This document shows positions 32,553-48,818 of a DNA stretch of 64,000 nt, one piece after another. The first letter of the stretch is position 1. Each line of letters begins with the position of its first letter. Origin of the DNA: Thermoanaerobaculia bacterium (GTDB lineage: Bacteria; Acidobacteriota; Thermoanaerobaculia; Gp7-AA8); NCBI GenBank assembly GCA_036380735.1, contig DASVEE010000015.1, forward strand, positions 116,409-180,408, written 5' to 3'. The notes beneath the pieces were generated by a model. The model saw only the letters and a list, made by a program, of their open reading frames with translations. It was not told the origin of the DNA and ran no database searches. A program made the position numbers and the translations under genes.

Positions 32553-32557
32553 TTGTG

Positions 32558-32634
32558 GTGGGACGAATGGGACGGATTTGACCTACAGGTCGATGAAGTC
32601 CCATTCGTCCCATTTGTCGTATCGGTCCTATCGC
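32558..32634. repeat. 9-bp-unit inverted-repeat element
   Basis: gggacgaatgggacggatttgacc..gtcccattcgtcccatttgtcgtatcggtcctatcg. Confidence 0.6.
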
Positions 32635-33791
32635 TACTTACCCACCGCCCGCCGTCTTGGCCCCACGCGGTTGGCGTCGATCACCTGATAGATGCCGCCG
32701 CTGCTGCCGTGGCGGGCTACGTACAACTCCCCGGCGACGTCTTCCCCGAACGTGCTGATCGAAAAGTTCGTGTCGAAGAGGTCGCGCGAGGTCCAGCGCC
32801 CGGTCGAGTCCTGCGTCGCGCCCCAGATGATGCCGCTGCAGTAGTCGCCGTAGAGGAACATGCCGCGCAGGCGCGGGTAGCGCGTGCCGCGGTAGCGGTA
32901 GCCGCCGGTGACGGAGCAGCCGTTGGCGTGCGTGTACTCGAGGACGGGCAGCACCAGCGTCCCGTCGTTGCAGTTGCTCGTCGGATTGAAGCAGCGCGTT
33001 CCTTCCATGCGCCGCCAGCCGTAGTTCTCGCCGCCCGTGCTGGTGGCCGGCTGGAAGTTGATCTCCTCGATCTGCTGCTGCCCGACGTCGGCGATCCAGA
33101 GGTCGCCCGTCTCGCGGTCGAAGGAGAAGCGCCACGGGTTGCGCAGCCCGTAGGACCAGATCTCGCCGCGGGCGCCGCCGCGGTTCACGAACGGATTGGA
33201 CGGCGGGATCGCGTATGGCGAGCCGCTGTCGACGTCGAGGCGGAGCATCTTCCCGAGCAGGTCGCCGAGGTTCTGGGCGCGGTTGCCGGGATCGCCGCCG
33301 CTGCCGCCGTCGCCCATGCCGATGTAGAGGTAGCCGTCGGGGCCGAAGTGCATCTGCCCGCCGTTGTGATTGGCGAACGGCTGATTGACGCGGAGGATGA
33401 CGAAGGCGGAGCCCGGGTCGGCGCGGTTCGGGTCGCTCGCCGAGCGGCTGTAGCGCGCGACCACGGTGTGGCCGTTCACGTCGGTGTAATTGACGTAGAA
33501 GTAGCCGTTGTCGCGGTACCGCGGATGAAAGGCGATGCTGAGCAGGCCGCGCTCGCCGCCGGTGGAGACCAGCGACCGGACATCGAGGAACGGCGTGGGG
33601 AGGAGCTGCGTGCCGTCGTGGATGACGACGCGCCCTTCCTGCAGGGTGATGAAGAGGCGAGTGTCGCCGGCGTGCGTGATCGCGACGGGGTTGACGAAAC
33701 CGGAGGCGACGAGGCGGAGCTCGACGCGTTCCTGCGCGAGGAGCAATGTGGGGAGAAGGAACAGGAAAAGGAGGCCCGGGAGTTTCCGCAT
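32634..33791 (-). CDS. PQQ-dependent soluble sugar (glucose/sorbosone) dehydrogenase, beta-propeller
   Basis: RBS aggagg. Signal peptide MRKLPGLLFLFLLPTLLLAQ. NHNGGQMHFGPDGYLYIGMGDGGSGGDP and RNPWRFSFD are family motifs. Confidence 0.8.
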   Translation of the reverse strand: MRKLPGLLFLFLLPTLLLAQERVELRLVASGFVNPVAITHAGDTRLFITLQEGRVVIHDGTQLLPTPFLDVRSLVSTGGERGLLSIAFHPRYRDNGYFYVNYTDVNGHTVVARYSRSASDPNRADPGSAFVILRVNQPFANHNGGQMHFGPDGYLYIGMGDGGSGGDPGNRAQNLGDLLGKMLRLDVDSGSPYAIPPSNPFVNRGGARGEIWSYGLRNPWRFSFDRETGDLWIADVGQQQIEEINFQPATSTGGENYGWRRMEGTRCFNPTSNCNDGTLVLPVLEYTHANGCSVTGGYRYRGTRYPRLRGMFLYGDYCSGIIWGATQDSTGRWTSRDLFDTNFSISTFGEDVAGELYVARHGSSGGIYQVIDANRVGPRRRAVGK

Positions 33792-33856
33792 GGTGACCTC
33801 CTGCATGCAAAAACAGGCACCATTCTTGAGAGGGAAAGAGAGTGGGAGGAAAACTG

Positions 33857-34030
33857 ATGGGAACGATTCATCAGCCTAAGCCGAGCGAGCCGAAAGGCAT
33901 CCAGCCGGACCAACAGCCTCTGCAGCCCGGCGGCCCCGCGAATTCGCGCTCGACCGCCGAGAACCCCCAGCGCCCGAACATCCAGACTCCTGAATCGCAG
34001 CAGGAGAAAAAGGGCGAGCGCCGGTCCTGA
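33857..34030 (+). CDS. Small hypothetical Pro/Gln-rich protein (57 aa)
   Basis: RBS gggagg 6 nt before the ATG. Followed 45 bp downstream by its own intrinsic terminator. No Cys/Trp/Tyr; no homology recognisable. Confidence 0.35.
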   Translation: MGTIHQPKPSEPKGIQPDQQPLQPGGPANSRSTAENPQRPNIQTPESQQEKKGERRS

Positions 34031-34077
34031 ACCCCTAACCCCCTACACGAACGGACACACCCCCAAACAAAAAGTCA

Positions 34078-34112
34078 AAGGCCGCGGCGCAAGTCGCGGC
34101 TTTTGATTTTTT
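34078..34112 (+). terminator. Rho-independent terminator
   Basis: gccgcg-gcgcaagt-cgcggc followed by ttttgatttttt. Confidence 0.55.
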
Positions 34113-34115
34113 GGG

Positions 34116-34303
34116 GGAGGAAACGATGGGACCCATGGGACCTATAGGACCTATGGGACGAATGGGACCGCCGCCCAACCCTCAGTAAAGTTGCCATGCG
34201 TCTCCACGGTTCCCATAGGTCCCATCTGTCCCATAGGTCCCATTCGTCCCATTTCCCATAGGTCCCATAGGTCCCATTTCCCATCGGTCCCATTGGTACC
34301 ATC
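34116..34303. repeat. 9-bp-unit inverted-repeat element with conserved core (long arms)
   Basis: ggaaacgatgggacccatgggacctataggacctatgggacgaatgggacc. The core is gccgcccaaccctcagtaaagttgccatgcgtctccacgg. An inverted array of ~9 units follows. Confidence 0.7.
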
Positions 34304-34309
34304 CACGGC

Positions 34310-35596
34310 ATGCTTCGCGTTGCCCTGATCCTGGCCCTGACCGTGCGCGTGCTACTGATCGCCGCGGCCTACGCCCAGCGCGGCGACGCGCCGTTCGTGG
34401 CGCCGGATTCGTGGAGCTACCTCCAGGGCGCGTTCTCCATCGCCACCGACTTCACGTTCCGCGGCGAAAACGGCTCGCCCGAGCTCTTCCGCACGCCGGG
34501 CTACCCCTTGCTGCTCGTGCCGGCGATGCTGCTGCAGCAGCCGGTGCTCGTCGGGCTGGCCCTGAACCTTCTGCTGATGGTGGGCATCATCCTCCTCACG
34601 CATCGCCTCGCGCTGCGGCTGACGAACGAGCGCATCGCCGGCTTCTGCGCGGTCGCGGTCGCCATCGAGCCGACGCTGATGACGTGGTCGATGAAGCTGA
34701 TGCCGGAGACGTTGCTGACGTGCTGCCTCCTCCTCTTCGCCGTGGCCGTGCCGAAGCATCCGCTCGCGGCGGCGGTTGCGCTCTGCGCGGCGGCGTACGT
34801 CAAGCCCATCGTCTTTCCGCTCGTGCTCGTGCTGGCCGTCGCGGCGCTCTTCGTCCGTCCGCGCTTCGCCCTGGCCTGCCTGGCGCTCCTCGCGCCGTGG
34901 CACCTCCGCAACTACGCCGTGGCGGGGTATGGCGGCTTCTCCACCGTCGTGGAGCGCACGGCGTACCTCTCCGCCGGCGGTGCGGTGGCCGCGGACGATG
35001 CCAACGTCAGCCACGCGGAGATGCGCCTGCGCATGCTGCCGCGCGCCGATGGGACGGCGCCGGAGCAGCTTCGCCGCGAGGGGCTCGCGCTCGTGGCCGC
35101 GCATCCGCTCCGCTACGCCGCCATCCACGCGAAGGGTATGGCCCGCACGCTCTTCGATCCCGGCGCGGTCGAGTACCTGCGGATGCTCGGGATCTACGGG
35201 GAGGGGGGACGCGCCTTCCTGGAGCGGAGCGGCTTCCTCGCCACGGCACGCGCGTATCCGCTCGAGGTCGCGCTCTCCATCGCCCTCGCCGCCGTGCTCC
35301 TGCCTCTGATCGTGCTTGCTGCCGCAGGTGCGGTGAGAGGGTGGCGCAATCCCCAAATCGTGCTCCTGGCGGTGCTCGCCGGCTACCTCCTCGTCGCCGG
35401 CGGCGGCGTGCACGGCTATCACCGTTTCCGCGTTCCGGCCGTGCCGTTCCTCCTGCTGCTCGCATCCAGTACACTGCGAAGAAATGACGTTTCTGGCCGT
35501 CGCAGCGTGCCTGGTCCTCGCGTCGGGGGGGATCGTGACGACGTATCTGCTCTGGCTGGCGGCGGCGCCGCGCCGGCCGCGTGCGGCAGTCAGTAG
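34310..35596 (+). CDS. Polytopic membrane protein, GT-C-type (PMT/ArnT-like) glycosyltransferase candidate
   Basis: About 11 predicted TM helices. N-terminal periplasmic-loop region with an acidic residue (DSWSY) as in GT-C enzymes. Overlaps the next gene by 113 bp. Confidence 0.55.
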   Translation: MLRVALILALTVRVLLIAAAYAQRGDAPFVAPDSWSYLQGAFSIATDFTFRGENGSPELFRTPGYPLLLVPAMLLQQPVLVGLALNLLLMVGIILLTHRLALRLTNERIAGFCAVAVAIEPTLMTWSMKLMPETLLTCCLLLFAVAVPKHPLAAAVALCAAAYVKPIVFPLVLVLAVAALFVRPRFALACLALLAPWHLRNYAVAGYGGFSTVVERTAYLSAGGAVAADDANVSHAEMRLRMLPRADGTAPEQLRREGLALVAAHPLRYAAIHAKGMARTLFDPGAVEYLRMLGIYGEGGRAFLERSGFLATARAYPLEVALSIALAAVLLPLIVLAAAGAVRGWRNPQIVLLAVLAGYLLVAGGGVHGYHRFRVPAVPFLLLLASSTLRRNDVSGRRSVPGPRVGGDRDDVSALAGGGAAPAACGSQ

Positions 35597-36569
35597 CGCC
35601 CCCGCCGCGCCGGTCCTCATCGTCGTCCCGATCTTCGACGAGGCCGCCCTCATCGAGCGCAAGCTGGAGAACCTGGACGCGCTGACCTACGCCGGCCGCG
35701 GCGTGGTCCTGGTGGATGGCGGTTCCACCGACGGCACCGTGGACCTCGTGCGCCGGTGGATCGAAGGCAGGTCCCATTCGTCCCAGTTCACCGTCATCGA
35801 AACCGCGCACCGCAACAAGACCGCGCAACTGGTCGACGCCGTGCGCACCCATCCGCACGCGGAGTGGATCCTCGTCACCGATGCCGACGCGCTGCTCGCG
35901 CCCGACACCATCGAGCGTCTGTTCGACGTCGTCGCGGCCGATGCGAACGTCGGCGTCGTTGGCGCCAGCGTGCACCCCACGACGGCGCACGCGCTCGAAG
36001 CGCTCCACTGGCGCGCCACCGACTGGCTGCGCGACCGCGAGTCCGACCGCGGCTCCGCGGCCATCGTCGCCGGGCCGTGCTACCTCACCCGGCGCAGGTT
36101 CCTCGCCGACCTGCCGGCCGACACCGTCGCCGACGACGTGTACGTCGCCTGCAGCGCGATGCTCGCCGGCCAGAGCGTCGGCCACGGACACTCCACCGTT
36201 TTCGAGCTGCGCTCTCCGCGCACGCTGCGCGCGCTGCTCCGCCACAAGTACCGCAAGGCTGACGCGTATCTGCGCGAGATCCTCCGCTTTCTGCCGCTCG
36301 CGCCCAGGATGCCGGCCGCGCAGCGTGCAGTCTTTCTCTGGCGCGCCGCTCTCCTCACCCTCGTCCCCATTCTCGGCGCCCTCGGCAGCCTCGCCTTCCT
36401 TCTCGGCGCGGCGGTCGAGGCGTCGGTCGTCATCGCCCTCCTGCTCACCATCCGTCCGGCGCGTCTCGCGGCGATCCTTGCTGCTGTCGCCGCGCTCGCG
36501 CTGCTGATGACGCCGTTCTCCCGGCAGACCGCCTCGTTACCCAAAATCACGAACGTCGAGGAAGCATGA
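35484..36569 (+). CDS. Family-2 glycosyltransferase (membrane-anchored)
   Basis: N-terminal TM segment. LIVVPIFDEAALIERKL. DGGSTDGT and TDADA (DxD) motifs. C-terminal TM helices. Confidence 0.7.
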   Translation: MTFLAVAACLVLASGGIVTTYLLWLAAAPRRPRAAVSSAPAAPVLIVVPIFDEAALIERKLENLDALTYAGRGVVLVDGGSTDGTVDLVRRWIEGRSHSSQFTVIETAHRNKTAQLVDAVRTHPHAEWILVTDADALLAPDTIERLFDVVAADANVGVVGASVHPTTAHALEALHWRATDWLRDRESDRGSAAIVAGPCYLTRRRFLADLPADTVADDVYVACSAMLAGQSVGHGHSTVFELRSPRTLRALLRHKYRKADAYLREILRFLPLAPRMPAAQRAVFLWRAALLTLVPILGALGSLAFLLGAAVEASVVIALLLTIRPARLAAILAAVAALALLMTPFSRQTASLPKITNVEEA

Positions 36570-37597
36570 AAAACAGCGACAAGCTCCGCATCGGCAGCAA
36601 GATCCTCATTTCCAAAGCGACCGGCAAGCCGCGGCCGTTCTTCATCCAGTACTCGCTGCTCAATGCGTGCAACGCGAAGTGCGTCTACTGCAACTGCCCG
36701 GAGCGCGAAGATCCGCGCGCCGGTCTGGAGCAGCACCGCCACGTCCTCGGCGAGTTCGCCCGCCTCGGCGCCGTGCGCATCAAGTTCCTCGGCGGCGAGC
36801 CGCTGCTGCATCCCAACCTCGGTGAGCTCGTCGCCATCGCCAAATCGCACGGCATGCGCACCGCCATCGTCACCAACGGCTTCCTCGTCCCGGCGCGCAT
36901 GGAGATCATGAAGCAGCTCGACGAGGTCATCATCTCCATCGACGGCAGCGAAGCAGCGCACGACGGGCAGCGCGGCCGCGGCACGTGGAAGAAGGTCATG
37001 GCCGCGATCGACGCGTGCGCGAACGCGAAGCTCGACTTTTTCCTCAGCGCCGTCGTCACGCGCAACACCGTGGGTGAGGTCGACTGGCTGATCGAGACGG
37101 CGAAGCGCTACAACGTCTCCGTCAACTTCCAGATCCCTCAGTTCAACCCCGAGATGTACGGGCCGGGCGCGAAGGAGTGGATGCCGTCGCCCGACGAGAT
37201 CCGCAAGCTGATCGGCAAGATCATCATGGCCAAGGAAGCCGGCGCGCCGGTGCTCTTCTCTTCACGTTCGTACGGCCGCACGCTGCAGTGGGACGACTAC
37301 GCGCGCGAGCGCGACCATCGTCCCGGCGAAGCCTCGCCCTGCACCGCCGGCAAGTACTTCCTGCAGATGGAGCCGAACGGCGACATCTATCCGTGCGTGC
37401 TGCAGATCGGCACGTTCCAGCCGAAGAACGCGTTCCGCGACGGCGTGGAGACCGCCTGGCGCAACGCGTGGAGCCACTCCTGCTTCGACTGCTACAACAC
37501 CTGGCTCAACGAAAACCGCGCGATCTTCGACCTGCACCCCACGGTGCTGAAGAACTTCTGGACGAACTACCTGCGACAGGGGACGGCGTCGGCGTAG
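36566..37597 (+). CDS. Radical SAM enzyme with C-terminal SPASM-like Cys-rich domain
   Basis: ATGA overlap with the upstream gene. CNAKCVYCNC (Cx3Cx2C). GGEPLL. C-terminal cysteines C..CTAGKYF..GDIYPCVLQ..HSCFDCYN. Confidence 0.8.
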   Translation: MKNSDKLRIGSKILISKATGKPRPFFIQYSLLNACNAKCVYCNCPEREDPRAGLEQHRHVLGEFARLGAVRIKFLGGEPLLHPNLGELVAIAKSHGMRTAIVTNGFLVPARMEIMKQLDEVIISIDGSEAAHDGQRGRGTWKKVMAAIDACANAKLDFFLSAVVTRNTVGEVDWLIETAKRYNVSVNFQIPQFNPEMYGPGAKEWMPSPDEIRKLIGKIIMAKEAGAPVLFSSRSYGRTLQWDDYARERDHRPGEASPCTAGKYFLQMEPNGDIYPCVLQIGTFQPKNAFRDGVETAWRNAWSHSCFDCYNTWLNENRAIFDLHPTVLKNFWTNYLRQGTASA

Positions 37598-37600
37598 CGG

Positions 37601-37727
37601 CGATAGGACATAGGACCCATTGGACAAATAGGACCCATAGGCCTGCGGACCCTGCAGCCTCGGTGGTCGGGTGGGGGACTACCTATCTGTCCCATCGGTC
37701 CCATAGGTCCCATTCGTCCCATCGTCC
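37601..37727. repeat. 9-bp-unit inverted-repeat element
   Basis: gataggacataggacccattggacaaataggacccatagg, core cctgcggaccctgcagcctcggtggtcgggtgggggac, then ctatctgtcccatcggtcccataggtcccattcgtcccatcg. It fills the convergent gap exactly between two stop codons. Confidence 0.7.
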
Positions 37728-38648
37728 TCAGTTGCGACCCCGCCGCCGCCCCATCGCCTTGACGGCGCATTGCAGCCCGTCGATGGCCACGCGAATCGCC
37801 GCGCGGCGCGCGGCGTCGCTGCGCCAGATGACGTGGACCTTGCGGTGCAGGATGGGCGTGGCGGCGATCATCTTCACGCCTTCGGGCACGGTTCCGCGCC
37901 CGAGGCGGGGGATGATCGCCATGCCGAGTCCGGCGGCGACGAGGGCCAGCTGGGTGTCGTGCTCCGCGGCGGTGTGCGTGATCCGTGGCTCGTGACCGGC
38001 GGAGCGCAACGTGTGCAGCAGCCAGTCGTGGCAGATCGACCGCACCGGCCAGGTGATCCACTGCTCGTCCGCCAGATCCTCCAGTTTGATCGTGGCGCGG
38101 CGCGCGAGACGATGACGCGCCGGCACGGCGACGTCGGCCAGGTCATCGAACAGCGCCTCTTTCTCCAGTCCATCCGGCAGCGCCAGCGGGTTGTTGAACC
38201 AGTCCTGCGCGATCACCAGATCGAGCTCGCGGCGCATCAGCTGCGGCACGGCGTCCAGCGGCTCGAGCTCGCGCAGCTCGACGCGCAACTGCGGATGCTC
38301 GTCGCGTAACAGCGCCAGCGCCCGCGGCGCGAGGCCGCGCGCGGCCGTCGGGAACGCGGCCATCACGATGTGCCCGCTCACCGTGTCGCGATGCGCTTCG
38401 AGGTCCGCCTCCGCGCGCTCCAGCAGCGAGATCACCTCGCGCGTGTGCGCCACCAGCAGCGCGCCGGCATCGGTCAGACGCACGCCGCGGCCGACGCGCT
38501 CGAGCAGCAACTGGTCCGTCTCGCGCTCGAGCTTCGCGATCTGCTGCGACACGGCGGACGTGGTGACATGCAGCGCTTCGGCGGCGGCCTGGATGGAGCC
38601 CTGGCTCGCAACGGCGTGCAGCGCGGCCAGGCGATCGACGTTCAACAT
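37728..38648 (-). CDS. LysR-family transcriptional regulator
   Basis: N-terminal HTH LAALHAVASQGSIQAAAEALHVTTSAVSQQIAKLE. LysR substrate-binding domain follows. Confidence 0.85.
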   Translation of the reverse strand: MLNVDRLAALHAVASQGSIQAAAEALHVTTSAVSQQIAKLERETDQLLLERVGRGVRLTDAGALLVAHTREVISLLERAEADLEAHRDTVSGHIVMAAFPTAARGLAPRALALLRDEHPQLRVELRELEPLDAVPQLMRRELDLVIAQDWFNNPLALPDGLEKEALFDDLADVAVPARHRLARRATIKLEDLADEQWITWPVRSICHDWLLHTLRSAGHEPRITHTAAEHDTQLALVAAGLGMAIIPRLGRGTVPEGVKMIAATPILHRKVHVIWRSDAARRAAIRVAIDGLQCAVKAMGRRRGRN

Positions 38649-38722
38649 GTAAGCAATACTAAAGCATCACGCAAGAAAGAATCACTTGTCCTAATGCTTC
38701 CGCGGACGCATCTTGGGTCGTC

Positions 38723-39637
38723 ATGAGTACCTGCCCCGCCGTTGCCACCCCGCAGCTCTCCTTCACCGACAGCGTCCGCAATCACCCGCTCTTCGACTGG
38801 CTGCTCCTCCTCGCGCCCGGGATGATCTGGGGAGGGTCGTTCCTCTTCATCGCCGAAGCGCTGGAGTCGGTTGGGCCGTTCGGCATCGCGTTCCTGCGCA
38901 TCCTCATCGGCTTCGCCACGCTCTCGCTGCTGCCCGCTGTGCGCCGTCCCCTCAGCGGCGCCGACTGGCGCGCCACCGCCTGGGTGGGGCTGCTCTGGAT
39001 GGCGTTCCCGCTCTGCATGTTTCCCCTCGCGGAGCAGCACGTGAGCTCCGCCCTCACGGGGATGCTGAACGGCGCCACGCCGCTCTTCACCGCCGCGGTC
39101 ACGGCGCTGCTCACGCGCAAGCTCCCGCAGCGGAAGATCGCCCTCGGCCTCGCCGTCGGTCTCGGCGGCGCCGTGCTGATGGCGGTGGCGGGCGGCGCCG
39201 GCCGCATGCAGGGTGAGTGGAGCGGCATCGCCATGATCCTGGCCGCCCTCCTCTCCTACGGCATCGCGTTCAACCTCGCCGTCCCGCTGCAGCGCCGCGC
39301 CGGCGCGCTGCCGGTGCTGTGGCGCGCGCTCGGCGTGGGCGTGATCCTCACCGCGCCGCTGGGCTTACCGGAGGTGTTCGCGGCGCAGTGGAAGCTGAGC
39401 GGCGTGCTGTCGATTCTGGCGCTCGGCGCGCTGGGAACCGGGCTGGCGTTCGTCATCTTCGGCGCGGCCGCCGGCCGGCTGGGCCCCACGCGCGCTTCCG
39501 CGACGACGTTCCTCACGCCGGTGGTGGCTTTGCTGCTGGGCGTACTCCTGCGCGGCGAATCCGTCGCCGTGCTGTCGATCGCCGGCGCCGCCATCTGCCT
39601 CGGCGGCGCATGGCTGATCCGGGCGGGGGCACGATAG
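38723..39637 (+). CDS. DMT-superfamily (EamA-like) transporter
   Basis: Ten hydrophobic helices with duplicated EamA-like halves. Divergent from the LysR gene. Confidence 0.8.
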   Translation: MSTCPAVATPQLSFTDSVRNHPLFDWLLLLAPGMIWGGSFLFIAEALESVGPFGIAFLRILIGFATLSLLPAVRRPLSGADWRATAWVGLLWMAFPLCMFPLAEQHVSSALTGMLNGATPLFTAAVTALLTRKLPQRKIALGLAVGLGGAVLMAVAGGAGRMQGEWSGIAMILAALLSYGIAFNLAVPLQRRAGALPVLWRALGVGVILTAPLGLPEVFAAQWKLSGVLSILALGALGTGLAFVIFGAAAGRLGPTRASATTFLTPVVALLLGVLLRGESVAVLSIAGAAICLGGAWLIRAGAR

Positions 39638-40315
39638 GACGAATAGGACGAATAGGACCAATAGGACGGATGGGACAAATAGGACATTAGAACCTTCGCA
39701 CGGCGCATCAGTCCCATCGACGTTCTTCACGCCAGTGGTGGCGTTGCTGCTGGGCGTACTCCTGCGCGGCGAATCCGTCGCCCTGCTGTCGATCGCCGGC
39801 GCCGCCATCTATTTCGGCGGCGCATGGCTGATCCGCGCGGCGGCACGATAGGACGTTAGAACCTCGGACAGATGGGCCACGCCCATTCGCACGGCGCATC
39901 AGTCCCATCTGTCCTATCCGTCCTATAGGTCCTATTCGCCTATCGTTCCCCGTCTCTACGGCACCTGCAACACCGACAGGATGTTGCCCGCCGGTTCGCG
40001 GAACCAGGCGACCTGGCGTTCGTCATCTTCGGCACGGCCGCCGGCCGGCTGGGCCCCACGCGCGCTTCCGCGACGACGTTCCTCACGCCAATGGTGGCGT
40101 TGCTGCTGGGCGTACTCCTGCGCGGCGAATCCGTCGCCGTGCTGTCGATCGCCGGCGCCGCCATCTGCCTCGGCGGCGCATGGCTCATCCGGGCAGGGGC
40201 ACGATAGAACGTTGGAACCGCCGGACAGATGGGCCCACGCGCCATGACCACGGCGCATGAGTCCCATCCGTCCTATCCGTCCTATAGGTCCTATTCGTCC
40301 TATCGTCCCCCGTCC
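39638..40315. repeat. Mosaic of three 9-bp-unit elements interleaved with duplicated 3'-end fragments of both flanking genes
   Basis: 39715-39852 is a divergent copy of the EamA 3' end (39512-39637). 39956-40010 copies the 3' end of the glyoxalase gene (40316-40372). 40011-40205 copies the EamA 3' end again (39441-39637). Each fragment is followed by an element copy with a related core. Confidence 0.75.
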
Positions 40316-40696
40316 CTACGGCACCTGCAGCACCGACAGGATGTTGCCCGCCGGGTCGCGGAACCAGGCGATCTGGGGGCCGCCGCTGTCGCGGGCGATG
40401 CCTTTTGCGTCGGTCTTGATGTCGCCCTCGTACTGCTCGAACTTGACGCCGCGCCACGTCAGCTCGTCCACTGCCGCCTCGATGTCCGGCACCGGGAAGT
40501 TGAGCACCGTGAACGTGGCCGGCTGGTGGTCCGGCTTCGGGTAGACCATCACGGCCTCGCTGCCGGAGATGTGCAGCTCGAGGATGCCCATCTCGTTGTC
40601 GCGGACGTCGACGCCGAGGAGCTCGCCGTAGAACTTGCGGGCGCGGCCGATGTCGTCGACGGAGAAACTGCTGAATGCTTTCGTGTCTTTGAACAT
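40316..40696 (-). CDS. VOC-family (glyoxalase/bleomycin-resistance/dioxygenase) protein
   Basis: About 126 aa with the VOC beta-alpha-beta-beta-beta fold pattern. Ends [13 protein letters not shown]. Confidence 0.7.
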
Positions 40697-40709
40697 CTCG
40701 GATCCTTCC

Positions 40710-41129
40710 TCAGTCCTTGTGCGGCTCGCCGCCGTTGACCATCCACGGTGTGCCGTAGCGGTCCGTGACCATCCCGAAGCCGTCGGCCCAGAAGGTCTTC
40801 TCGAACGGCATCAGGACGGTGCCGCCCTCGGCGAACGCGTCGAAGACGCGCCGCGCTGCGTCCGCCGTCGGGTACACCAGCGACACGTGGAAGCTGGTCA
40901 TCTTGTCCTGCACGCCTTCGAAGTTGTCGGAGGCCATGAGGACGCCGCCGTCGGCTGCCTCGAGGCGCGCGTGCATGATGCGGTCGGCCATGCCGGGAGG
41001 GATTTGCTCCGGCGGCAGCGCGTCCTTGTGCGTCATCAGTTGCAGCTTGCCGCCGAGGACTTGTTCGTACCAGCGCATGGCCTCGGCGCAGTTGCCGTTG
41101 AAGATGAGGTAAGCGTTGATTGCGGGCAT
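40710..41129 (-). CDS. VOC-family protein, PhnB-like
   Basis: [53 protein letters not shown] resembles the PhnB/3-demethylubiquinone methyltransferase-like VOC proteins. Confidence 0.7.
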
Positions 41130-41160
41130 TGATTCGTCTCCTTCTCGCGGATCTCGGCGG

Positions 41161-41595
41161 TCAGTTCTTCTTCTCGATCTGGGCGCGCAGGCGGTCTTCC
41201 TGCTCGCGCAGCTCGGGGGTGAACTCCGCGCCGAAGTCCTCGGCTTCGAAGATCTGGCGGATCTCGACCTCGCTCTCGCTGTCGTCTTTGCCGTCGGGAT
41301 TCGGGATCCGCTTCACCCAGTCGATCGCTTCCTGCAGCGAGCCCACCTGCCAGATCCAGAAACCGGCGATCAGCTCCTTCGTCTCGGTGAACGGGCCATC
41401 GATGACGGTACGGCTGGAGCCGGAAAAGCGGACGCGGGCGCCCTTCGCGCTGGGATGGAGGCCTTCGCCGGCGAGCATGATGCCGGCGTTGACGAGCTCC
41501 TCGTTGAACTTGCCCATCTCCGTCAGCAACTGCTCGCTGGGCATGACCCCATTCTCACTGTCCGCGTTCGCCTTGATCAAAACCATGAATCGCAT
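41161..41595 (-). CDS. YciI/DGPF-like small protein
   Basis: RBS aaggag before the ATG at 41595. MRFMVLIKANADSE..DGPFTETKELIAGFWIW matches the DGPF/YCII-related fold pattern. The ORF-track N-terminal extension is rejected. Confidence 0.6.
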   Translation of the reverse strand: MRFMVLIKANADSENGVMPSEQLLTEMGKFNEELVNAGIMLAGEGLHPSAKGARVRFSGSSRTVIDGPFTETKELIAGFWIWQVGSLQEAIDWVKRIPNPDGKDDSESEVEIRQIFEAEDFGAEFTPELREQEDRLRAQIEKKN

Positions 41596-41727
41596 CGTTC
41601 GTCTCCTTGCGTGTTCTTGCCTATGCGTCGAACGAGCCTGGACGAAATCGACAGGGGCCGCAAAAAAAATGTGGCGACCGGCGAAAAAATCGCCGGCCGC
41701 CACGAAGAAGGCTGCTGCTGAGCGTCC

Positions 41728-44688
41728 TCAGTGGTCGTGCTGAGCCCCCTCGGGACCGGCGACCACGATGTGGAACGTCAGGGACGGGCCCTTCCCGCCG
41801 CGGTCGTCGACGCCGACGGCCCAGACCATGTAGTGGGCAGGCGGCAGGCTCGGCAGGGTGACCTCGTACGGGGCGGTGGTGTCGACGGCGACGAGCTGCG
41901 CCGGGGAGGCGAAGGAGTCGTGCTCCCGGACCCAGAACTCCACGCGGTCCACCCGTCCTCCGCGGTCGGTCGCGGCGGCCCTGAAGACGATCGGTGCGCC
42001 CGCCGCGAAGGTGGCGAGATCGCGCGGCGACTGCAGGTCGACGGCGGGGAGGGTGTTCTCGATGACGCTGATGGTCATGTCGGTCCGCGCCGTCTGGCTG
42101 CTGTTGAGGGCGAGCGCCCGCACGCGGCGCGGTCCGGTACCGGCGGCGGTCCAGTTGAAGGAGAACGGCGCCATGTCGGACGTCGCCACGAGCTTGCCGT
42201 CGATGAAGACCTGCACGCCCTTGATCGTGCCGTCCGGGTCGATGGCGTCGACGTGGAACGGGACGGTGTCTCCCGGCTGGAAGAGCGCGCCGTTCGGCGG
42301 CGACGTGATGACGACGGTGGGCGGTGTGTCGCGGACCGCATGGTTCGCCGTCAGCGCGAGGTCGAAGGTGGCGTCGTCGCCTTTGGCGTCCTGGTGGAGC
42401 TCGACCGCGATGACGTTGCGGCCGTCGCGCACGAGCTCGAGCGGCACCGGCACCGGGAAGAACGCTTCCTCCTCCGCACCGTTGACGCTGCCTTCGGCGT
42501 AGGCGTCGTCGCCTTCACCCTTCAGGTTCACGCGATGCAGCTCGGAGCCGTTGAGATACACGACCGCGCCGTCGTCGCGCTTGAGGTGCACCAGCATCTC
42601 GCGGTAGATCGAGCGGTCGGCGACGTCGAAGCCGTGGCGGTAGTAGGTGGTGGTGCGGCGGCCGACGGTCGTTTCCGGGTCGTCGCCGTAGCCGAACTCC
42701 GCGCGGCCGGTCCGCCACTTCTCGTCGTCGTAGCCGGGCTGCTGCCAGCCGTCTGCGGCGGCTTCGGTGTCGAGATAACGCCACCCCTCGTCGTTCTCCG
42801 GAATGAGGACGAGCCTGCGGAAGTCGACCTCGAAGCGCTGGCCGCCGACGAGCTCATTCGCATCATCGGGCGTGCCGTACTGGATCAGGTCGAACTTCGC
42901 CACGCCGTTGGTGGGGAGGTAGCCTTTGTTCAGCGCGAAGCCGACGGTCACGGGGAACGCCTCTTCGGGGGCCAGGCGGATGCCGGTGAGGGCGGCCTTG
43001 GCTCCGGTGATCTGGAGGCGGCCGCGCTCCGCGTCGACGGTGCGCACGTTCTCACCGTCGCCGCCGTCTTCCTGCCAGCGGTCGTAAAGCTCGCGCGGCA
43101 GGTCGACGTAGACGCCGCCGGTCTCCAGGTAGTCGCGCTCCTCGCGGCCCTCATAGACCTGGGCCAGTTCGAGACGCGTCACCGCCGTGAAGCGGGCCGG
43201 ATTGCGGACGAGGATCGGCGCCACGCGCTGCGCGCCGGTGAAGTTGTCGACGATCTGGATGTTCTTCCAGACGATGTTGTTGTTGTTCTTCGTGTTCGTG
43301 TTGACGCTCGCCACTTCCGGCGTGGTGATGCCGGGCTCGATGCGCGCGAGCAGGCAGAAATGCGATTGGTCGCCGCCGAAGCAGGAGAAGTTCGCCGGAT
43401 CGGGCGGATACCAGGGGATCTGCAGCACGACCGCCTGTCCCGGCTGAAGCACCGGCACGGTGAGCAGCGCGTTGTCGTAGATCGGCGGCGAGACCACGGA
43501 AGTGTGCGTCGGCGTCTTGGAGATGATGTAGCCGCCGGCGATCGTCCACGGGATGATCGGCGTGCCGGTGCCGTTCCACGGACCCATCGCCGTCGTGATG
43601 TTGATGTTGCCCGTGAGGGCGCCGTACGTCAGCGTCGGATCGAGCCGCCCGAGCTGGGCGGTGTTGCGCTGCCAGCGCGACCAGAGGCGGTCGGCGTTCG
43701 CATGCAGCATGAAGAAGAACGGATCTTCCGCGGCCGTCGGGATCGACCCCATGTTACCGCCGATGTGCACGTGCGAGCCGTCGTGCGGATCGCTCTCGAC
43801 GAAGGCGAAGTTCGAGTAGGGCGTGCGGTTCAGCACCGTGGTGTCGCTGGTGCCGGGCAGGCCGCTGCCGCCGACGTTGCGCGAGACGCTCGGCGGCGCC
43901 AGCACGTTGAACGGCGCGCCGATCGCGCCGTTGGAGTTCCCCATGAACGACGACGTCCAGTAGGTGCCGGCCGGCGGGGTGCTCTGCCAGTCCCAGTAAA
44001 GCAGCTTCAGGGTGGGCTCGTGCTCCTGCAGCAGCGCCTCGTAGCGGTTGATGTACTCGCGGTGCCACGGGAGAAACGCCGGTGAGCCGTGGCGGTTCGA
44101 CGGGCCGGACTGGTGCACGTGATCCTGCTTGTCGAAGTAGCTGACGCCGTCGCTGAAGGTGAACGGCGCCACGGTGCCGACGGCGATGATCGCGTCGCGG
44201 TAGGCGTTGCGCTCGGCCACCGTCGCGCTGACGGCGTTCTTGCGCGGCTTGGTGATCTCCATGCCGTACAGCTTCTGCGGGCCGCAGGTGGTGGCCTTGT
44301 AGTCGACCCACTGCGTGGGCCAGTTCAGCCCGGTCGAGGCCTTCGCCCAGTAGAGCTTGAGCGTGTCGTTGCCGCTCGACGCCACGTTGCCGCGGTTCCG
44401 CACGCGCACGTAGACGTAGTTCGGGACGCTGTATTTCGGGTCGCGGTATTCGGCGCTCTGGTGCGTTCCGGGCGCCCAGGGCGGCGTGTTGGCGGGGAAG
44501 GGGTATGGCTGGTAGGCCGGGTCGGGCGCGGTGCGGACCCAGATGTCCTCCGTCACCCACATCGCCCCGGTATCGGGATTCGGCTCCACCCCCGTATCGG
44601 CCGGGGTGTCCTTCATGTAGAGATCGGCCTGTGCGAAGGCGAGGAGCGGGAACAACAGGAGTGCCGCAAGGACTGCGAACCGCTTCAT
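41728..44688 (-). CDS. Large secreted tyrosinase (type-3 copper) with extra N-terminal, lectin/jelly-roll-like and Ig-like domains (986 aa)
   Basis: RBS ggagg. Signal peptide MKRFAVLAALLLFPLLAFA. CuA site H..HQSGPSNRHGSPAFLPWHREY. CuB site HVHIGGNMG..DPFFFMLHANADRLWSRWQ. C-terminal Big-like domains. Ends HDH. Confidence 0.8.
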   Translation of the reverse strand: MKRFAVLAALLLFPLLAFAQADLYMKDTPADTGVEPNPDTGAMWVTEDIWVRTAPDPAYQPYPFPANTPPWAPGTHQSAEYRDPKYSVPNYVYVRVRNRGNVASSGNDTLKLYWAKASTGLNWPTQWVDYKATTCGPQKLYGMEITKPRKNAVSATVAERNAYRDAIIAVGTVAPFTFSDGVSYFDKQDHVHQSGPSNRHGSPAFLPWHREYINRYEALLQEHEPTLKLLYWDWQSTPPAGTYWTSSFMGNSNGAIGAPFNVLAPPSVSRNVGGSGLPGTSDTTVLNRTPYSNFAFVESDPHDGSHVHIGGNMGSIPTAAEDPFFFMLHANADRLWSRWQRNTAQLGRLDPTLTYGALTGNINITTAMGPWNGTGTPIIPWTIAGGYIISKTPTHTSVVSPPIYDNALLTVPVLQPGQAVVLQIPWYPPDPANFSCFGGDQSHFCLLARIEPGITTPEVASVNTNTKNNNNIVWKNIQIVDNFTGAQRVAPILVRNPARFTAVTRLELAQVYEGREERDYLETGGVYVDLPRELYDRWQEDGGDGENVRTVDAERGRLQITGAKAALTGIRLAPEEAFPVTVGFALNKGYLPTNGVAKFDLIQYGTPDDANELVGGQRFEVDFRRLVLIPENDEGWRYLDTEAAADGWQQPGYDDEKWRTGRAEFGYGDDPETTVGRRTTTYYRHGFDVADRSIYREMLVHLKRDDGAVVYLNGSELHRVNLKGEGDDAYAEGSVNGAEEEAFFPVPVPLELVRDGRNVIAVELHQDAKGDDATFDLALTANHAVRDTPPTVVITSPPNGALFQPGDTVPFHVDAIDPDGTIKGVQVFIDGKLVATSDMAPFSFNWTAAGTGPRRVRALALNSSQTARTDMTISVIENTLPAVDLQSPRDLATFAAGAPIVFRAAATDRGGRVDRVEFWVREHDSFASPAQLVAVDTTAPYEVTLPSLPPAHYMVWAVGVDDRGGKGPSLTFHIVVAGPEGAQHDH

Positions 44689-44859
44689 GATTCTTCCTCC
44701 AATCGAGGAGGTAGAGCCGCCCTGGATGCAAATCCCTACCGGTAGCGAAAGCAATGACACTAACGGCCGGGGTTGGTGCGGCAGTGCTCAGAAGGAAAGG
44801 GGCCCCAGGGTCTGACCCCTGAGCCTTCACTGGTTCACGGCCTGCCAGACGTTCTGCCG

Positions 44860-45249
44860 TCACTGAGACAGCGGCAGCGCGGCCTCGGCCACGCACGTCC
44901 TGACGGCCTCACGCAGCAGGTCGAGGTCGAACGGCTTGCGGATGACCGTGTGCACGTTCCTGGATGCGCGCACGCTTTCGATCGACGGCGTGTTTGCGGC
45001 TGATGAAACGATGACTTTCGGCGCGCCCGCATCGTCATGCTCGGCCAGATAGCGCAACACTTCGAAACCACTGAGGACGGGCATCATCAGGTCGAGAATC
45101 ATCACACCGTAACTCCCGGTGCGCAGCTTCTCCAGCGCTTCCTCGCCATTAGTCGCTTCCCCCACGCCATAGCCGTCGCGAAGGAGGATCCGCGTCATCA
45201 GCATCCGGATGGAGCTGTCGTCATCGACCACGAGGATGGTGACTGGCAT
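44860..45249 (-). CDS. Stand-alone response-regulator receiver (CheY-like)
   Basis: RBS ggagg. VTILVVDDDSSIR..MILDLMMP..KVIVSSA..KPF. Confidence 0.8.
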   Translation of the reverse strand: MPVTILVVDDDSSIRMLMTRILLRDGYGVGEATNGEEALEKLRTGSYGVMILDLMMPVLSGFEVLRYLAEHDDAGAPKVIVSSAANTPSIESVRASRNVHTVIRKPFDLDLLREAVRTCVAEAALPLSQ

Positions 45250-45746
45250 CCGCCTCCATTGTATGCAGGTTCCTCACGTCATGGCGTCAGCGAATGCCGA
45301 GGAACGGCGTCTGCCGCCGAATGCAAGGCTTCACCAATGCGTGATGACCTCTTCGCGCTGCTCGCCGCCATTGGTGATGACTCCCCGGAAAAGCAGCACA
45401 TCCTGGCACGCTTCGAAGCCTCAGCCTCGCCTTCCTGATGCTGGAAGAGATGTCGCCGGAGAAACACCGCGCCTGCGAAGACGCTCGAGCGCATCCTCGC
45501 CAGCGCAGGCGTCTGAGCATCCGGGCACGGACATCGCACCTTCGAAAATGCTGACGTTCCCTCCGGCATTGGCATCCGGCGCGATCCCACCACGGGCGAA
45601 ACTTCGAGGCGGTGTTGCATACGGCGCAACAGGCGCCGGAGGGCGATCATGAAACACCAACAGCGTGGATGGAGCCGCCGCAGGGGTGGCGAGGAGGGCG
45701 TCGCGCCGAACCGCGGAGAGACCGCGCGGCGGAGGCTGCAGCGACC

Positions 45747-46178
45747 ATGGATCGACCGCAACTCACGGAACAGATCGGAGCCAATCTCCGCGCGGCGCGG
45801 CTCCACAGCGACACTTCGCTCGCCGCCGTCGCCGGCGATGCCGGGATCAGCACCGCCACGTTGTCGCGCATCGAAAACGGGAAGCAGTCGCTCGACGTGA
45901 CGCTGCTCGTCGTGCTCGCCGCGATCGTCGGCGCCTCTCCGGCCAGCATTGTGGGCGTTGGGGAATCGCTTCCCAGCGACGAGCGGGCGCTGGTCGCGGC
46001 TCTGCGCGCCGTGGAGCCCGCGCAGCAGCGGCGCATCATGCGTGCGGTCGAACGCGACGGCTCAGCGACCACGCCTGCGGCCCAACTGATGGAGGAAGTC
46101 GCCGAGCACCTCGCCGCGGCAACGATCAAGCTCAAAGCTGCGCGGCGACAGATGGCCAGGGAACGGCGCCGCTCCTGA
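45747..46178 (+). CDS. XRE-family (Cro/C1-type) HTH transcriptional regulator
   Basis: RBS ggagg. LRAARLHSDTSLAAVAGDAGISTATLSRIENGKQS helix-turn-helix. Confidence 0.7.
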   Translation: MDRPQLTEQIGANLRAARLHSDTSLAAVAGDAGISTATLSRIENGKQSLDVTLLVVLAAIVGASPASIVGVGESLPSDERALVAALRAVEPAQQRRIMRAVERDGSATTPAAQLMEEVAEHLAAATIKLKAARRQMARERRRS

Positions 46179-46363
46179 GAGCCTCGGCAGTCACCTCTCG
46201 CCGTCTTTCAGCTCGTTCGCGACAGCCGCAGGTCAGTTCATCCCGACATTTGTACGGTAGCGTAATGATCGCGCAGCGTTTTTGCATAACTGCTATGCAC
46301 ACCCGACAAGTGCGCGCGCGATTTCTTGCACGGCATCTGTCCGTCCGCACACGGAGAACGCTC

Positions 46364-46990
46364 ATGACGACGATGATTGGGGAAGCTGAGGCCGCGGCGT
46401 CCGAGCCGCACTGGCTGCAAACCGTGGTAACCGAGGGCGATGCCGGCTTTCTCATCGAGTCCGCTGAACAGATCACCTACGTCAACCGTGCGTACGCGTT
46501 GATGCTGGGCTACGACTCGCCGGCGCAACTCCGTGGGCATCATCTGTCGGCGATCGTGGCCGAGGAAGACCTGCCGCGGCTGCTGAGTTTCAGCAAGATG
46601 CGCCTGCATGGGTTGTCTGCCCCGCGCAACTACGAGTTCACGGCCCGCTGCCGCGATCGCTCCCTGATCCGCCTCAGGGCTACCGTTTCCGCCGCACGCT
46701 CCGGCCCCTCTGTCGTCATCGGCACGATGGTCCTGCCCTGCGACCGGCGGGAGGCGTTGGTGCGTAGCGACTCGCCCGCCGTCCTCGCGTCGCGGCTCTC
46801 GCGGCGGGAGCGCGAAGTGATGGAGCTGATTCTCGCCGGGCACAGGATGAAAGAGATCGCACTCGCGCTCGATATCAGCGCCAAGACCGTGTCGACGCAC
46901 CGCACCCGGATGCTCAAGAAGCTGAACCTCACCACGATCCGCGAGCTGTACCAGTACGCGGTGACGCACCGTCTCGTCGAGTGGGCCTGA
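46364..46990 (+). CDS. PAS-domain / LuxR-type HTH transcriptional regulator
   Basis: RBS ggaga. PAS-like N-terminal half. C-terminal LSRREREVMELILAGHRMKEIALALDISAKTVSTHRTRMLKKL. Confidence 0.8.
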   Translation: MTTMIGEAEAAASEPHWLQTVVTEGDAGFLIESAEQITYVNRAYALMLGYDSPAQLRGHHLSAIVAEEDLPRLLSFSKMRLHGLSAPRNYEFTARCRDRSLIRLRATVSAARSGPSVVIGTMVLPCDRREALVRSDSPAVLASRLSRREREVMELILAGHRMKEIALALDISAKTVSTHRTRMLKKLNLTTIRELYQYAVTHRLVEWA

Positions 46991-47097
46991 AGGCGCGAAG
47001 GTGACGACCCGGAGCCGCCCGGGAGTGTCGCGCGGCCGCCGGGCTGAAGCTGATTCTCGCGTTTGTCCTCCACTCTGCGTCGCCAGTGCGTGCGGTG

Positions 47098-47781
47098 CTA
47101 GGGTATCGGCTCGGCGAGAAACCGATAGCCGATCCATGGCTCGGTCACGATGTAGCGCGGTGACGAGGGGTCCGGCTCGATCTTGCGTCGCAGCGAGCTG
47201 ACATGCACGCGCACCGTTTCATCCGTCGTGGCCGGAGCCGCGGCCCAGATGCGCGCCACGATCTGCCTCATCGAGACCGGCTTCCCGGCGCGCGTCGCGA
47301 GGAGCTCCAGCAGCGCGAACTCCGTCGGGGTGAGCTTGATCTCGCGCGCTCCCTGCGTCACGCGATGCTGCTCGATGTCGATCGTGAGATCCGCGAAGTG
47401 CAGCACCGAAGGGCCTGCGCCGGCACGGCGGAACTGCGCCCGGATGCGGGCCAGCAGCTCCGGGACCGAGAACGGCTTCGTGACGAAGTCATCAGCGCCC
47501 AGATCGAGCGCCCGGATCTTATCGGCGTCGCCACCGCGCACCGAGAGGACGATGATGGGCGTACGCGACCTAGCCCGCACGGCCGCGATCAACGCGAAGC
47601 CGTCAGCTACGGGCATCGCCAGATCGGTGAGGATCAGGTCCGGCACATGCACGCGAAAGGCGGCCATTCCGGCGCGCCCATCCGCCGCCGTCACGGTGTC
47701 GTAGCCGGCGGCTCGCAACTCGTGCGAGAGCGATTCACGGATCGGCGGATCGTCGTCGACGACCAGCACGAGCGGCTCGGT
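47098..47781 (-). CDS. OmpR-family response regulator (KdpE-like)
   Basis: Receiver LVLVVDDDPPIR..ILTDLAMP. Winged-helix C-terminal domain ..LTPTEFALLELL..YIVTEPWIGYRF. Confidence 0.85.
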   Translation of the reverse strand, partial: TEPLVLVVDDDPPIRESLSHELRAAGYDTVTAADGRAGMAAFRVHVPDLILTDLAMPVADGFALIAAVRARSRTPIIVLSVRGGDADKIRALDLGADDFVTKPFSVPELLARIRAQFRRAGAGPSVLHFADLTIDIEQHRVTQGAREIKLTPTEFALLELLATRAGKPVSMRQIVARIWAAAPATTDETVRVHVSSLRRKIEPDPSSPRYIVTEPWIGYRFLAEPIP

Positions 47782-48818
47782 CATCCTTCCGCCCCCGACG
47801 CTGCCGCTTCGCCGCGCGCGGCGGGCAGATCGATGCGCGCCACGGCACCGCCGCCTTCGCGGTTCTCCAGCACGAAGGTTCCGCCGCTCGCCACGGTCAA
47901 GCCCCGCGCGATCTCGATCCCCAGCCCACGGTGCGAGACGTCGGAGTCGGACGGCAGACCATGGCCGCGGTCGAGCACCTCGAGGCGCACGGCCGACTGA
48001 TGGCGCATTGCCGTCAGCTCGATCGGAACCTCCGGCGGCGACGCCTGGTGCGCGTTCTCCACGACGTTCGCTACGATCTCCAGCGCCAGCGACGGATCGA
48101 CGAACGCATCGGGGCAATCCTCCGCCACGTGAATGGCCACGGTCCTGGTCGCGAACACGCTCGTGAGGCTCTCGCGCACCGCGTGGAAAATGTCGGCCGG
48201 CGGTGTCGGCTCCGGATGCGGTGTGAAGCGTCCGGCTTCGAGCCGCGCGATCGTCAGCAGGTTCTCGATCCGCCGGTGGAGGCGTCCCGTCTCGACGTCG
48301 ATGGCCTGGATCGTCGCCGACAGCTCCGGCGTGGATGCCGCCTGCCGGGCCAGTGCAGCGATATGGATACGCACCGCGGTGAGCGGCGTCGTCAGGTCGT
48401 GCGACGCCGCGCGGAGCAGCGAAGTCTTGAACGCGTCGCTCTGCCGCAGCAGGTCGATGTGCGCGTTGGCTTCTCCTTCCAGGCGGCGCCGCTCGGCGTA
48501 CATCGCCTCGGCACGCGCCGCGAGGACGATGCGGGAGACGACGAGCGATGAGAGAAGAAACGCCGTGAGCGCCACCCAGTTCCGCGCATCGTCGACATGG
48601 AATGTGTGCTGCGGCGGCAGGAAGAAGTAGTTGTAGGCGCCCGTGGCCAGCAGCGAAGCCGCGATGCCGCCCCAAAGGCCGCTCCACATCGACAGAAAGA
48701 CGACGGCCACCAGATAGGCGAAGCCCATCGTGATCGGGTTCAGTTGCGCGCGTTCGCCCGCCGCGGTGACCGCGGCGATGATCGCGGGAATGGCGAGCCA
48801 CCGGAAATCAACCTTCAT
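47781..48818 (-). CDS. Sensor histidine kinase corresponding to the KdpD C-terminal module (DUF4118-type membrane domain + HisKA + HATPase), no Kdp-sensor N-domain
   Basis: ATGA overlap with the response regulator. Four TM helices. H-box SHDLTTPLTAV. GHGLP..GLGIEIARG. Confidence 0.8.
   Translation of the reverse strand: MKVDFRWLAIPAIIAAVTAAGERAQLNPITMGFAYLVAVVFLSMWSGLWGGIAASLLATGAYNYFFLPPQHTFHVDDARNWVALTAFLLSSLVVSRIVLAARAEAMYAERRRLEGEANAHIDLLRQSDAFKTSLLRAASHDLTTPLTAVRIHIAALARQAASTPELSATIQAIDVETGRLHRRIENLLTIARLEAGRFTPHPEPTPPADIFHAVRESLTSVFATRTVAIHVAEDCPDAFVDPSLALEIVANVVENAHQASPPEVPIELTAMRHQSAVRLEVLDRGHGLPSDSDVSHRGLGIEIARGLTVASGGTFVLENREGGGAVARIDLPAARGEAAASGAEG

Follow-up and report, generated by a model that had tools for sequence, protein, structure and literature searches.

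The region between the genes encoding an EamA/DMT transporter and a VOC/glyoxalase-family protein is a head-to-tail array of one unit of about 360 nt, in which the EamA 3' end, a hairpin element and the glyoxalase 3' end follow each other and one unit is truncated. This array lies in a window of 64,000 nt of DNA from a Thermoanaerobaculia bacterium, and all positions given here are those of the window, the whole stretch that was analysed. The array is best explained, with a probability of about two in three, as the fossil of a local tandem duplication that arose by illegitimate (microhomology-mediated) recombination or template switching and was followed by a second rearrangement and neutral decay. 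Events of this kind are well known, and the locus adds a clean natural case in which a small tandem duplication covers the ends of two convergent genes, has kept both junctions and has persisted to 4-9% divergence.

The EamA and glyoxalase genes are convergent, with 678 nt between their stop codons (Table 1). The EamA stop codon TAG (39635-39637) falls within the half element E1. In alignments with homologues, the real EamA C-terminus is homologue-like, with WLIR followed by a few residues (4, or 3-13 over the aligned set). The glyoxalase gene product covers positions 8-119 of the 121 positions of its profile in the Pfam search. The neighbouring genes, annotated from open reading frames and Pfam, encode LysR, radical SAM, VOC, VOC and YCII proteins.

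Table 1. Genes, repeat units, gene-end copies, hairpin elements and junctions of the EamA/glyoxalase locus
Feature	Position	Strand	Description	Basis
EamA/DMT transporter gene	38723..39637	+	Intact, 304 aa, HEX7151217.1	Pfam EamA 2.4e-26; exact protein present in NCBI MAG record
VOC/glyoxalase-family gene	40316..40696	-	Intact, 126 aa, HEX7151219.1	Pfam Glyoxalase 4.3e-11; exact protein in NCBI and Logan
Unit A	39443-39718		Real EamA end and half element	
Unit B	39719-40016		5'-truncated	
Unit C	40013-40376		Complete, continues into real glyoxalase gene	
Copy A	39443-39637	+	Last 195 nt of real EamA	Self-alignment
Copy B	39719..39851	+	5'-truncated EamA 3'-end pseudo-copy, equivalent to 39505-39637	93.5% identity
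Copy C	40013..40207	+	Pseudo-copy of EamA last 195 nt	96.5% identity
Glyoxalase-end pseudo-copy	39956..40016	-	Last 19 codons and stop, equivalent to 40316-40376	3 differences in 61 nt (95%)
E1	39625..39718	+	Half element: left terminus GGGGGCACG, six 9-mers ATrGGACnn (39634-39687), partial core TAGAACCT/TCGCACGGCGCATCAGTCCCATC	
E2	39840..39951	+	Left terminus and one 9-mer, core with 22-nt segment CGGACAGATGGGCCACGCCCAT (39865-39886), right arm of five 9-mers (39902-39945) and terminus	
E3	40196..40311	+	E2-like architecture: one left 9-mer, extra core segment, five right 9-mers	
J1	40013..40016		Glyoxalase-end copy joined to EamA position 39443 via 4-nt CTGG overlap	Overlapping alignments
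J2	39718..39719		...CAGTCCCATC / GACGTTC; left side at element loop/right-arm boundary, right side at EamA position 39505	

The repeats were identified by self-alignment with BLAST. The segments 39443-39641 and 40013-40211 are 96.5% identical over 199 nt, and 39504-39641 and 39718-39855 are 93.5% identical over 138 nt. A third alignment, of 39718-40016 with 40074-40376 (91% over 303 nt, offset 356), extends without a break from the EamA 3' fragment through the hairpin element into the 61-nt end of the glyoxalase gene. Repeats of 135-300 nt at 91-96% identity are far above what chance would give. The intergenic content amounts to three EamA 3' ends (the real one included), two glyoxalase 3' ends and 2.5 hairpin elements, and only about 375 nt lie between copies A and C. 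The array copies are direct, contiguous and in register, and they have the same strand and the same internal order. The anatomy, the junction sequences and the decay pattern are directly visible in the DNA. Self-alignment thus confirmed the duplication and triplication of gene ends together with an element that had been proposed in a preliminary description, whose coordinates were right within a few bases and required small corrections for copy B, copy C and the glyoxalase-end copy. The proposed shuffling of the gene ends was not found, since the EamA end, the element and the glyoxalase end follow one another in this order and with unchanged orientation in all units.

The hairpin elements belong to a family with periodic arms that occupies about 17 loci in the window. 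The pattern ATAGGACNNATAGGAC (at most 2 mismatches) gave 100 matches in the window against 0.05 expected, and the element consensus is GGGGAACG-(ATrGGACnn)x4-8 - variable core - (nnGTCCyAT)x4-6 - CGTTCCCC. Family members in the window start at a stop codon or directly after it. Intact members were predicted by folding to be very stable hairpins (z about -11). The elements carry no T-tracts and are not canonical intrinsic terminators.

Three elements (E1, E2 and E3) are present at the locus, as had been described, but E1 is only a half element. It has neither a right arm nor the 22-nt core segment, and it does not fold alone (z -0.6). E2 and E3 are identical at 94 of 107 positions, and each is a weak hairpin on its own, with z values of -3.8 and -1.8, respectively. 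The extra core segment of E2 and E3 relative to E1 measures 22-24 nt. The left arm of E1 is complementary to the right arms of both E2 and E3 (pairing with the E3 arm extends over 56 nt at 88%), and the segment 39615-39960 folds into one long stem around unit B (z -7.7). Most simply, this complementarity is explained by a single complete element that the duplication split in two. E2 and E3 have in common a loss of 45 nt (5 x 9) from the left arm and the extra core segment, and they lie at equal distances to both stop codons, which indicates copying together with the flanks rather than separate insertions. Elsewhere in the window there are asymmetric or one-armed elements with no duplicated flank (29870, 23398 and 32598); loss of arm units is therefore ordinary decay for this element family.

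Two novel junctions, J1 and J2, were identified in the array. The parents of J1 are otherwise unrelated coding sequences with no long repeat at the endpoints, and an overlap of at least 4 nt has a probability of P = 0.027 for random joints drawn from the window. The hexamer GGAACC is found upstream of J1 in both parents, at 7 nt in the glyoxalase gene and 3 nt in the EamA gene. The junction had been placed on a GGAACC(A/G)GG microhomology; the motif does occur in both parents, but the crossover lies 4-7 nt further on, in the CTGG overlap. The element lies about 180 nt from one J1 endpoint and about 65 nt from the other, each of them within a coding region, and the elements are passengers at this junction. 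The overlap at J2 is about 1 nt (C), and chance alone would give 1 nt or more in 47% of random joints. J2 is thus nearly without microhomology and may reflect a different joining mechanism, namely end joining after a break; it could represent either end joining or a deletion joint.

The extra copies decay in a pseudogene-like manner, and both real genes keep normal ends. In the codon comparison, the real EamA gene differs from both copies solely at two synonymous sites. Copy B contains seven unique substitutions, mostly nonsynonymous; its codon changes comprise five nonsynonymous (L>F, V>L, C>Y, L>F and G>A) and one synonymous change. Two nonsynonymous (A>T and V>M) and two synonymous changes are present in copy C, and the glyoxalase-end copy shows two nonsynonymous changes and one synonymous change in 61 nt. 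The numbers of unique sites in the EamA part are 7 in B, which is the outlier, 4 in C and 2 in A.

Copy C has been annotated by NCBI as a 60-aa 'EamA family transporter' (HEX7151218.1, 40025-40207), an ORF that needs an ATC start and matches the C-terminal third of the Pfam EamA profile. This annotation and match, together with the direct orientation of the copies and the conserved stretches that they have in common, would suit a functional cassette or mini-gene, in which either the transporter would vary its C-terminus by drawing on the silent 3' copies as donors, or the 60-aa ORF would be expressed. Such a function is hardly credible, as the ATC start points to homology-driven annotation and a scan of 39300-40500 for promoter and terminator consensus sequences gave no such site. 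The variation consists of a few scattered substitutions and not of a variable cassette, just two donors are available, and no recombinase or integrase gene was found near the locus among the neighbouring ORFs by Pfam. HEX7151218.1 is regarded as a homology-driven annotation of a pseudogene fragment, and the few scattered substitutions of the promoterless partial EamA copies are typical of decay. The locus illustrates the origin of such scars and of spurious mini-CDS annotations. The idea that the elements generate variant C-termini likewise finds no support, and no altered C-terminus has resulted, because EamA ends like its homologues, the glyoxalase matches its profile to the end, and the extra copies are promoterless and carry nonsynonymous changes.

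From these features we infer the order of events, the enzymology and the neutrality of a local tandem duplication. The ancestral locus would have consisted of the EamA gene, one complete element (six left 9-mers, a core and five right 9-mers) and the glyoxalase gene. A segment of about 360-400 nt, comprising the last 195 nt of EamA, the element and the final 61 nt of the glyoxalase gene, would then have been duplicated head to tail, and the join at the CTGG overlap beside the common GGAACC would have produced J1. Both real genes are intact because a tandem duplication over two convergent gene ends leaves one full copy of each outside, whereas the inner fragments have no 5' parts and would consequently drift as pseudogenes. 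Slippage in the 9-nt-periodic arm would account for the loss of five left-arm units (45 nt) in the E2/E3 lineage. The duplication scar is probably neutral.

The third, truncated unit (B) could have been formed by two routes, each of which would belong to a history of five events. In the first history, the J1 duplication would have been followed by the 45-nt arm loss in the second unit, by unequal crossing-over between the two units to give three, by a deletion of about 170 nt, which makes J2 a deletion joint, and by the 22-nt deletion in the E1 core. In the second history, an earlier duplication of 214 nt would have created J2 as a duplication joint and the arm loss would have occurred in its second copy. 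The J1 duplication would then have given four EamA ends, a homologous deletion between two of them would have produced copy C, and the 22-nt deletion would again have come last. A single multi-switch replication event is also conceivable. Unequal crossing-over and slippage-type mechanisms, which had been named in the preliminary description, were judged reasonable.

A single clock-like history of two steps was rejected, as the similarities among the copies are mosaic and the EamA part, the core and the indels conflict. In the common core, 1 of 40 positions distinguishes E1 from E2, and E3 differs at 4 of 23 right-core positions and at several left-core positions. The indels group E2 with E3, at odds with the substitution pattern. 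This mosaic requires a further assumption, namely gene conversion (among the copies or with family members), a raised mutation rate in the hairpin loop or additional events.

The closest genomes (about 82% at the nucleotide level in flanking DNA) are represented by ENA k141_491223, GCA_036399695.1 DASWMP010000362.1 and JGI Ga0334956_000063. These genomes are syntenic with window positions 27477-37575 and 54921-60763. About 2 kb of other genes stands in place of the 37.6-54.9 kb segment of the window, and the whole locus is missing, which places the locus in a variable region. Comparison with related genomes, by which the duplication was to be checked, accordingly yielded no unduplicated allele, and no pre-duplication allele was found in the genome contigs, proteins and metagenomes searched. 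A scan of genome contigs for EamA detected homologues that are 45-64% identical, none of them with an element. The closest EamA proteins are 73% and 68% identical, have different downstream neighbours and likewise lack the element. Among 15 billion sequences, no protein at least 90% identical to EamA was found except copy C, and the 90% cluster contains the protein itself and copy C. JGI metagenome contigs gave 0 matches to a 27-mer that the three EamA copies have in common, and EamA-derived sequence was found nowhere else in the window.

Location of the locus within a 17-kb segment that is missing from the closest relatives is one of two observations that favour foreign DNA; the other is the mosaic similarity of the copies, which is awkward for a clock-like history in situ. 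A diverged EamA-element-glyoxalase fragment of a related strain would in that case have been integrated via one homologous and one microhomology end, and the divergence of the copies would be strain divergence. Such an origin is very unlikely, given that the differences in copy B are mostly nonsynonymous, unlike those of a functional allele of another strain, that E2 and E3 have unique structural defects in common, and that no related allele was found in the databases searched.

The source of the sequence is a metagenome-assembled genome and the locus is rich in repeats, so that an assembly artefact has to be considered, in which the assembler expanded a locus with only one EamA-element-glyoxalase arrangement or chained strain variants into one sequence. 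Very little credence can be given to this explanation. The copies differ by 4-9% with indels, and their longest identical runs are 86 nt (A/C), 47 nt (B/C) and 39 nt (A/B); with this divergence and such short runs, the copies are resolvable by reads. At most 4 nt are common to the joined sequences at J1 and J2 (at J1 there is also the separate GGAACC hexamer a few nt upstream), and no k-mer graph could therefore make these joins without real reads.

Further evidence against an artefact was obtained from Logan, where two k=31 contigs (SRR25158503) are 100% identical to window positions 37698-39494 and 40283-41227. The first contig stops exactly at 39494, which is the unitig end predicted by a k=31 de Bruijn simulation of the window. 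In this simulation, the next k-mer (39465-39495) also occurs in copy C, and 39464 is the last base specific to A, whereas a simple SNP bubble would have put the contig end at 39463 and not at 39494. The contig end indicates that two or more distinct EamA 3' ends, in the arrangement of the window, are present in the SRR25158503 read set. A look-up of partial ORFs predicted for the k=31 unitig 39753-40064, aimed at independent contigs across J1 or J2, gave no match. The Logan contigs are independent support as regards the assembler, though not necessarily as regards the sample.

Whether the elements themselves drove the duplication of the gene ends was also considered. A hairpin or cruciform may stall the fork or be cut (SbcCD-type, at the loop), and template switching or end joining would then duplicate or delete the flanks, making element loci prone to copying gene ends. 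Several features are in line with such a role. The left endpoint of J2 is located exactly at the boundary between the element loop and the right arm, the 45-nt arm loss and the 22-nt core indel lie inside elements, and the duplicated unit is centred on an element. In addition, intact family members form very stable hairpins, and a 42-nt tandem array (9613-9836) lies 33 nt from another element. J1, however, which is the joint that produced the duplication, has its two endpoints in coding sequence away from the element. Local repeats unconnected to elements are also present in the window (51.4-54.5 kb).

To survey the frequency of such events, the window and 80 metagenome loci retrieved with CGATRGGACNNATRGGACNNATRGGAC, together 439 kb with about 75 element loci, were compared with themselves by BLAST, and local direct repeats of 50 nt or longer were recorded. 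Gene ends duplicated next to an element were detected only at the EamA/glyoxalase locus, a count of 1 in about 75 that is biased downward, as short-read contigs tend to break at such repeats. An active role of the elements is therefore considered unlikely, and the duplication is not the direct evidence of element-promoted duplication that it had been taken for: the J1 endpoints are coding, only J2 touches an element, and a single locus among those surveyed is affected. Hairpin breakage or instability may nevertheless have contributed to J2 and to the internal indels, as all three small indels, like one of the junctions, are located within elements.

A broader form of the same proposal is that the periodic-arm hairpins (ATrGGACnn)n...(nnGTCCyAT)n are recurrent hot spots of fork stalling or breakage, where template switching copies flanking gene 3' ends into the element or its surroundings. 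This is distinctly improbable. If it were true, C-terminal variation would have a source in these copies, and the first case on record would be the EamA/glyoxalase locus. The matter would be of greater importance only if these abundant hairpins raised the local rearrangement rate genome-wide, which the present data do not show.

A tandem duplication of the proposed kind resembles the amplification of lac in E. coli, in which the tandem repeats are bordered by microhomology of 4-15 bp, template switching is held responsible and REP elements are not preferentially used (Slack et al. 2006, PMC1428787). Both cases show head-to-tail repeats and a novel junction with few G/C-rich identical bases (4 nt here and 4-15 bp in E. 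coli), without long homology at the endpoints and with later changes in copy number by unequal crossing-over. The unit is about 360 nt here, whereas it is 7-32 kb in E. coli. The present array also differs in having no evident selection, a divergence of 4-9%, one internally deleted unit and a second junction with an overlap of about 1 nt.

REP-mediated tandem duplications are known from Salmonella, according to the citation of Shyamala et al. 1990 in PMC7661048. Intergenic palindromic repeats at a tandemly duplicated locus are common to that case and the present one. Here, however, the two endpoints of J1 are coding, and only one side of J2 reaches an element. Shyamala, Schneider and Ames reportedly placed the join-point within REP sequences at both ends and ascribed it to recombination between two REPs.

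Pack-MITEs, known from plants, are non-autonomous elements that take up pieces of genes between their terminal inverted repeats, a process called transduplication. The EamA/glyoxalase locus is similar in that copy B is enclosed by the E1 left arm and the E2 right arm, which pair around it. A tandem duplication through a single element gives the same picture as such a capture. Unlike Pack-MITE cargo, the fragment originates from the adjacent gene in native order and orientation, the composite was found nowhere else, and no transposase is linked. Transduplication, one of the mechanisms put forward earlier, was thus rejected, as the fragments come from immediately adjacent genes in native order and no copies were found elsewhere in the window or in JGI metagenomes.

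Integrative elements duplicate gene 3' ends at their integration sites, as e14 does in icd and phages do in tRNA and tmRNA genes. A diverged copy of a gene 3' end shortly downstream of the intact gene is also the situation found here. The locus differs from such sites in that it has no integrase and no cargo, and the ends of both convergent genes are duplicated. Duplication of an att site was rejected on the basis of the short distance between copies A and C, the missing integrase and the lack of an insert on the kb scale.

The hairpin family is a more interesting object than the duplication scar and constitutes a separate finding. No Rfam match was obtained anywhere in the window and the arm sequences were not found in the published literature; the family is apparently so far undescribed. 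It is widespread in metagenomes and polymorphic between close relatives. The elements vary between lineages and are positioned exactly at gene ends.

A family of hairpin elements with a 9-nt period was identified in the window, which is rich in these elements (see the table for copies). The arms have the form (ATrGGACnn)n / (nnGTCCyAT)n, and the termini read GGGAACG...CGTTCCC. The family was also found in at least 120 metagenome stretches, including the loci L086-L165, on contigs with a GC content of 44 to 73%. Rfam contains no family for this element, and its arm sequence was found in no paper. The 9-mer hairpin family appears to be undescribed.

Features of the window (a, missing at the orthologous site of relatives)
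Feature	Position	Strand	Remark
9-mer element	6070-6373
9-mer element	9518-9580
9-mer element	14376-14519
9-mer element	17203-17349
9-mer element	22134-22264
9-mer element	23398-23442
9-mer element	26431-26516
9-mer element	29870-29958		a
9-mer element	32598-32631
9-mer element	34126-34302		a
9-mer element	37609-37724		a
9-mer element	60309-60412		a
Tyrosinase/Big_7 gene	41728-44760
Tyrosinase/Big_7 gene	54537-57683
IS200-like Y1 transposase ORF	53450-54007	+	Pfam Y1_Tnp 1e-8
Y1-locus repeat	51453-51588
Y1-locus repeat	53231-53426
Y1-locus repeat	54016-54210
Y1-locus repeat	54254-54449

Four 9-mer elements are insertion polymorphisms, because they are missing from the orthologous intergenic sites of relatives with approximately 82% flank identity (L206 4489-4508, 7132-7230 and 11010-11075; L207 11100-11260). 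At the MMPL/PPDK site, the relative instead contains a different hairpin at that position, with arms (GGATTGA)n...(TCAATCC)n and a 7-nt period. Hairpins with arms of 7-nt tandem units are also present in the window at 3139-3198, 12378-12467, 57656-57740 and 62346-62444 (units GGTTTTC/ACCGAAA, GTCGGTT/ACCGAAA and GAAGGCA/TTCTGCC), which suggests that this genome has a wider class of intergenic hairpins with periodic arms. Downstream of the 9-mer element at 9518-9580, at a distance of 33 nt, a convergent intergenic region contains a 42-nt tandem array (9613-9836; 4.6 copies, 96% matches) in which 21-nt halves are alternately inverted.

In the stretch 39625-39642, the EamA stop codon (TAG, 39635-39637) falls within the first 9-mer of an element. 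At 6060-6075, the left terminus of another element contains the stop codon of an ORF that ends at 6068. Insertion of 9-mer elements may therefore set the last codons of some genes. The cores of the three copies between EamA and the glyoxalase gene, E1 (39679-39718), E2 (39848-39909) and E3 (40204-40268), form a similarity mosaic. The E1 and E2 cores are near-identical, with 1 of 40 shared positions different, whereas E3 differs at many positions; despite this likeness, structural indels are common to E2 and E3. Such a mosaic is suggestive of gene conversion, or of a raised mutation rate in the loop of the hairpin.

The genomes most closely related have no counterpart of the region 37600-54900 (approximately 17 kb); in its place they contain other genes, over approximately 2 kb. 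Within this region of the window lies a second tyrosinase/Big_7 gene, 12.8 kb from the conserved one and sharing approximately 75-87% DNA identity with it.

The Y1 transposase ORF is surrounded by repeats of approximately 190 nt that hold GGACAGACACTCTTGTCTGTCC palindromes as inverted pairs, an arrangement that is RAYT/REPIN-like. The sequence of these repeats is unrelated to the 9-mer elements.

Copy C, the pseudo-copy of the EamA 3' end, is publicly annotated as a 60-aa 'EamA family transporter' (HEX7151218.1, 40025-40207) with an ATC start; this entry is probably a spurious CDS produced by the duplication.
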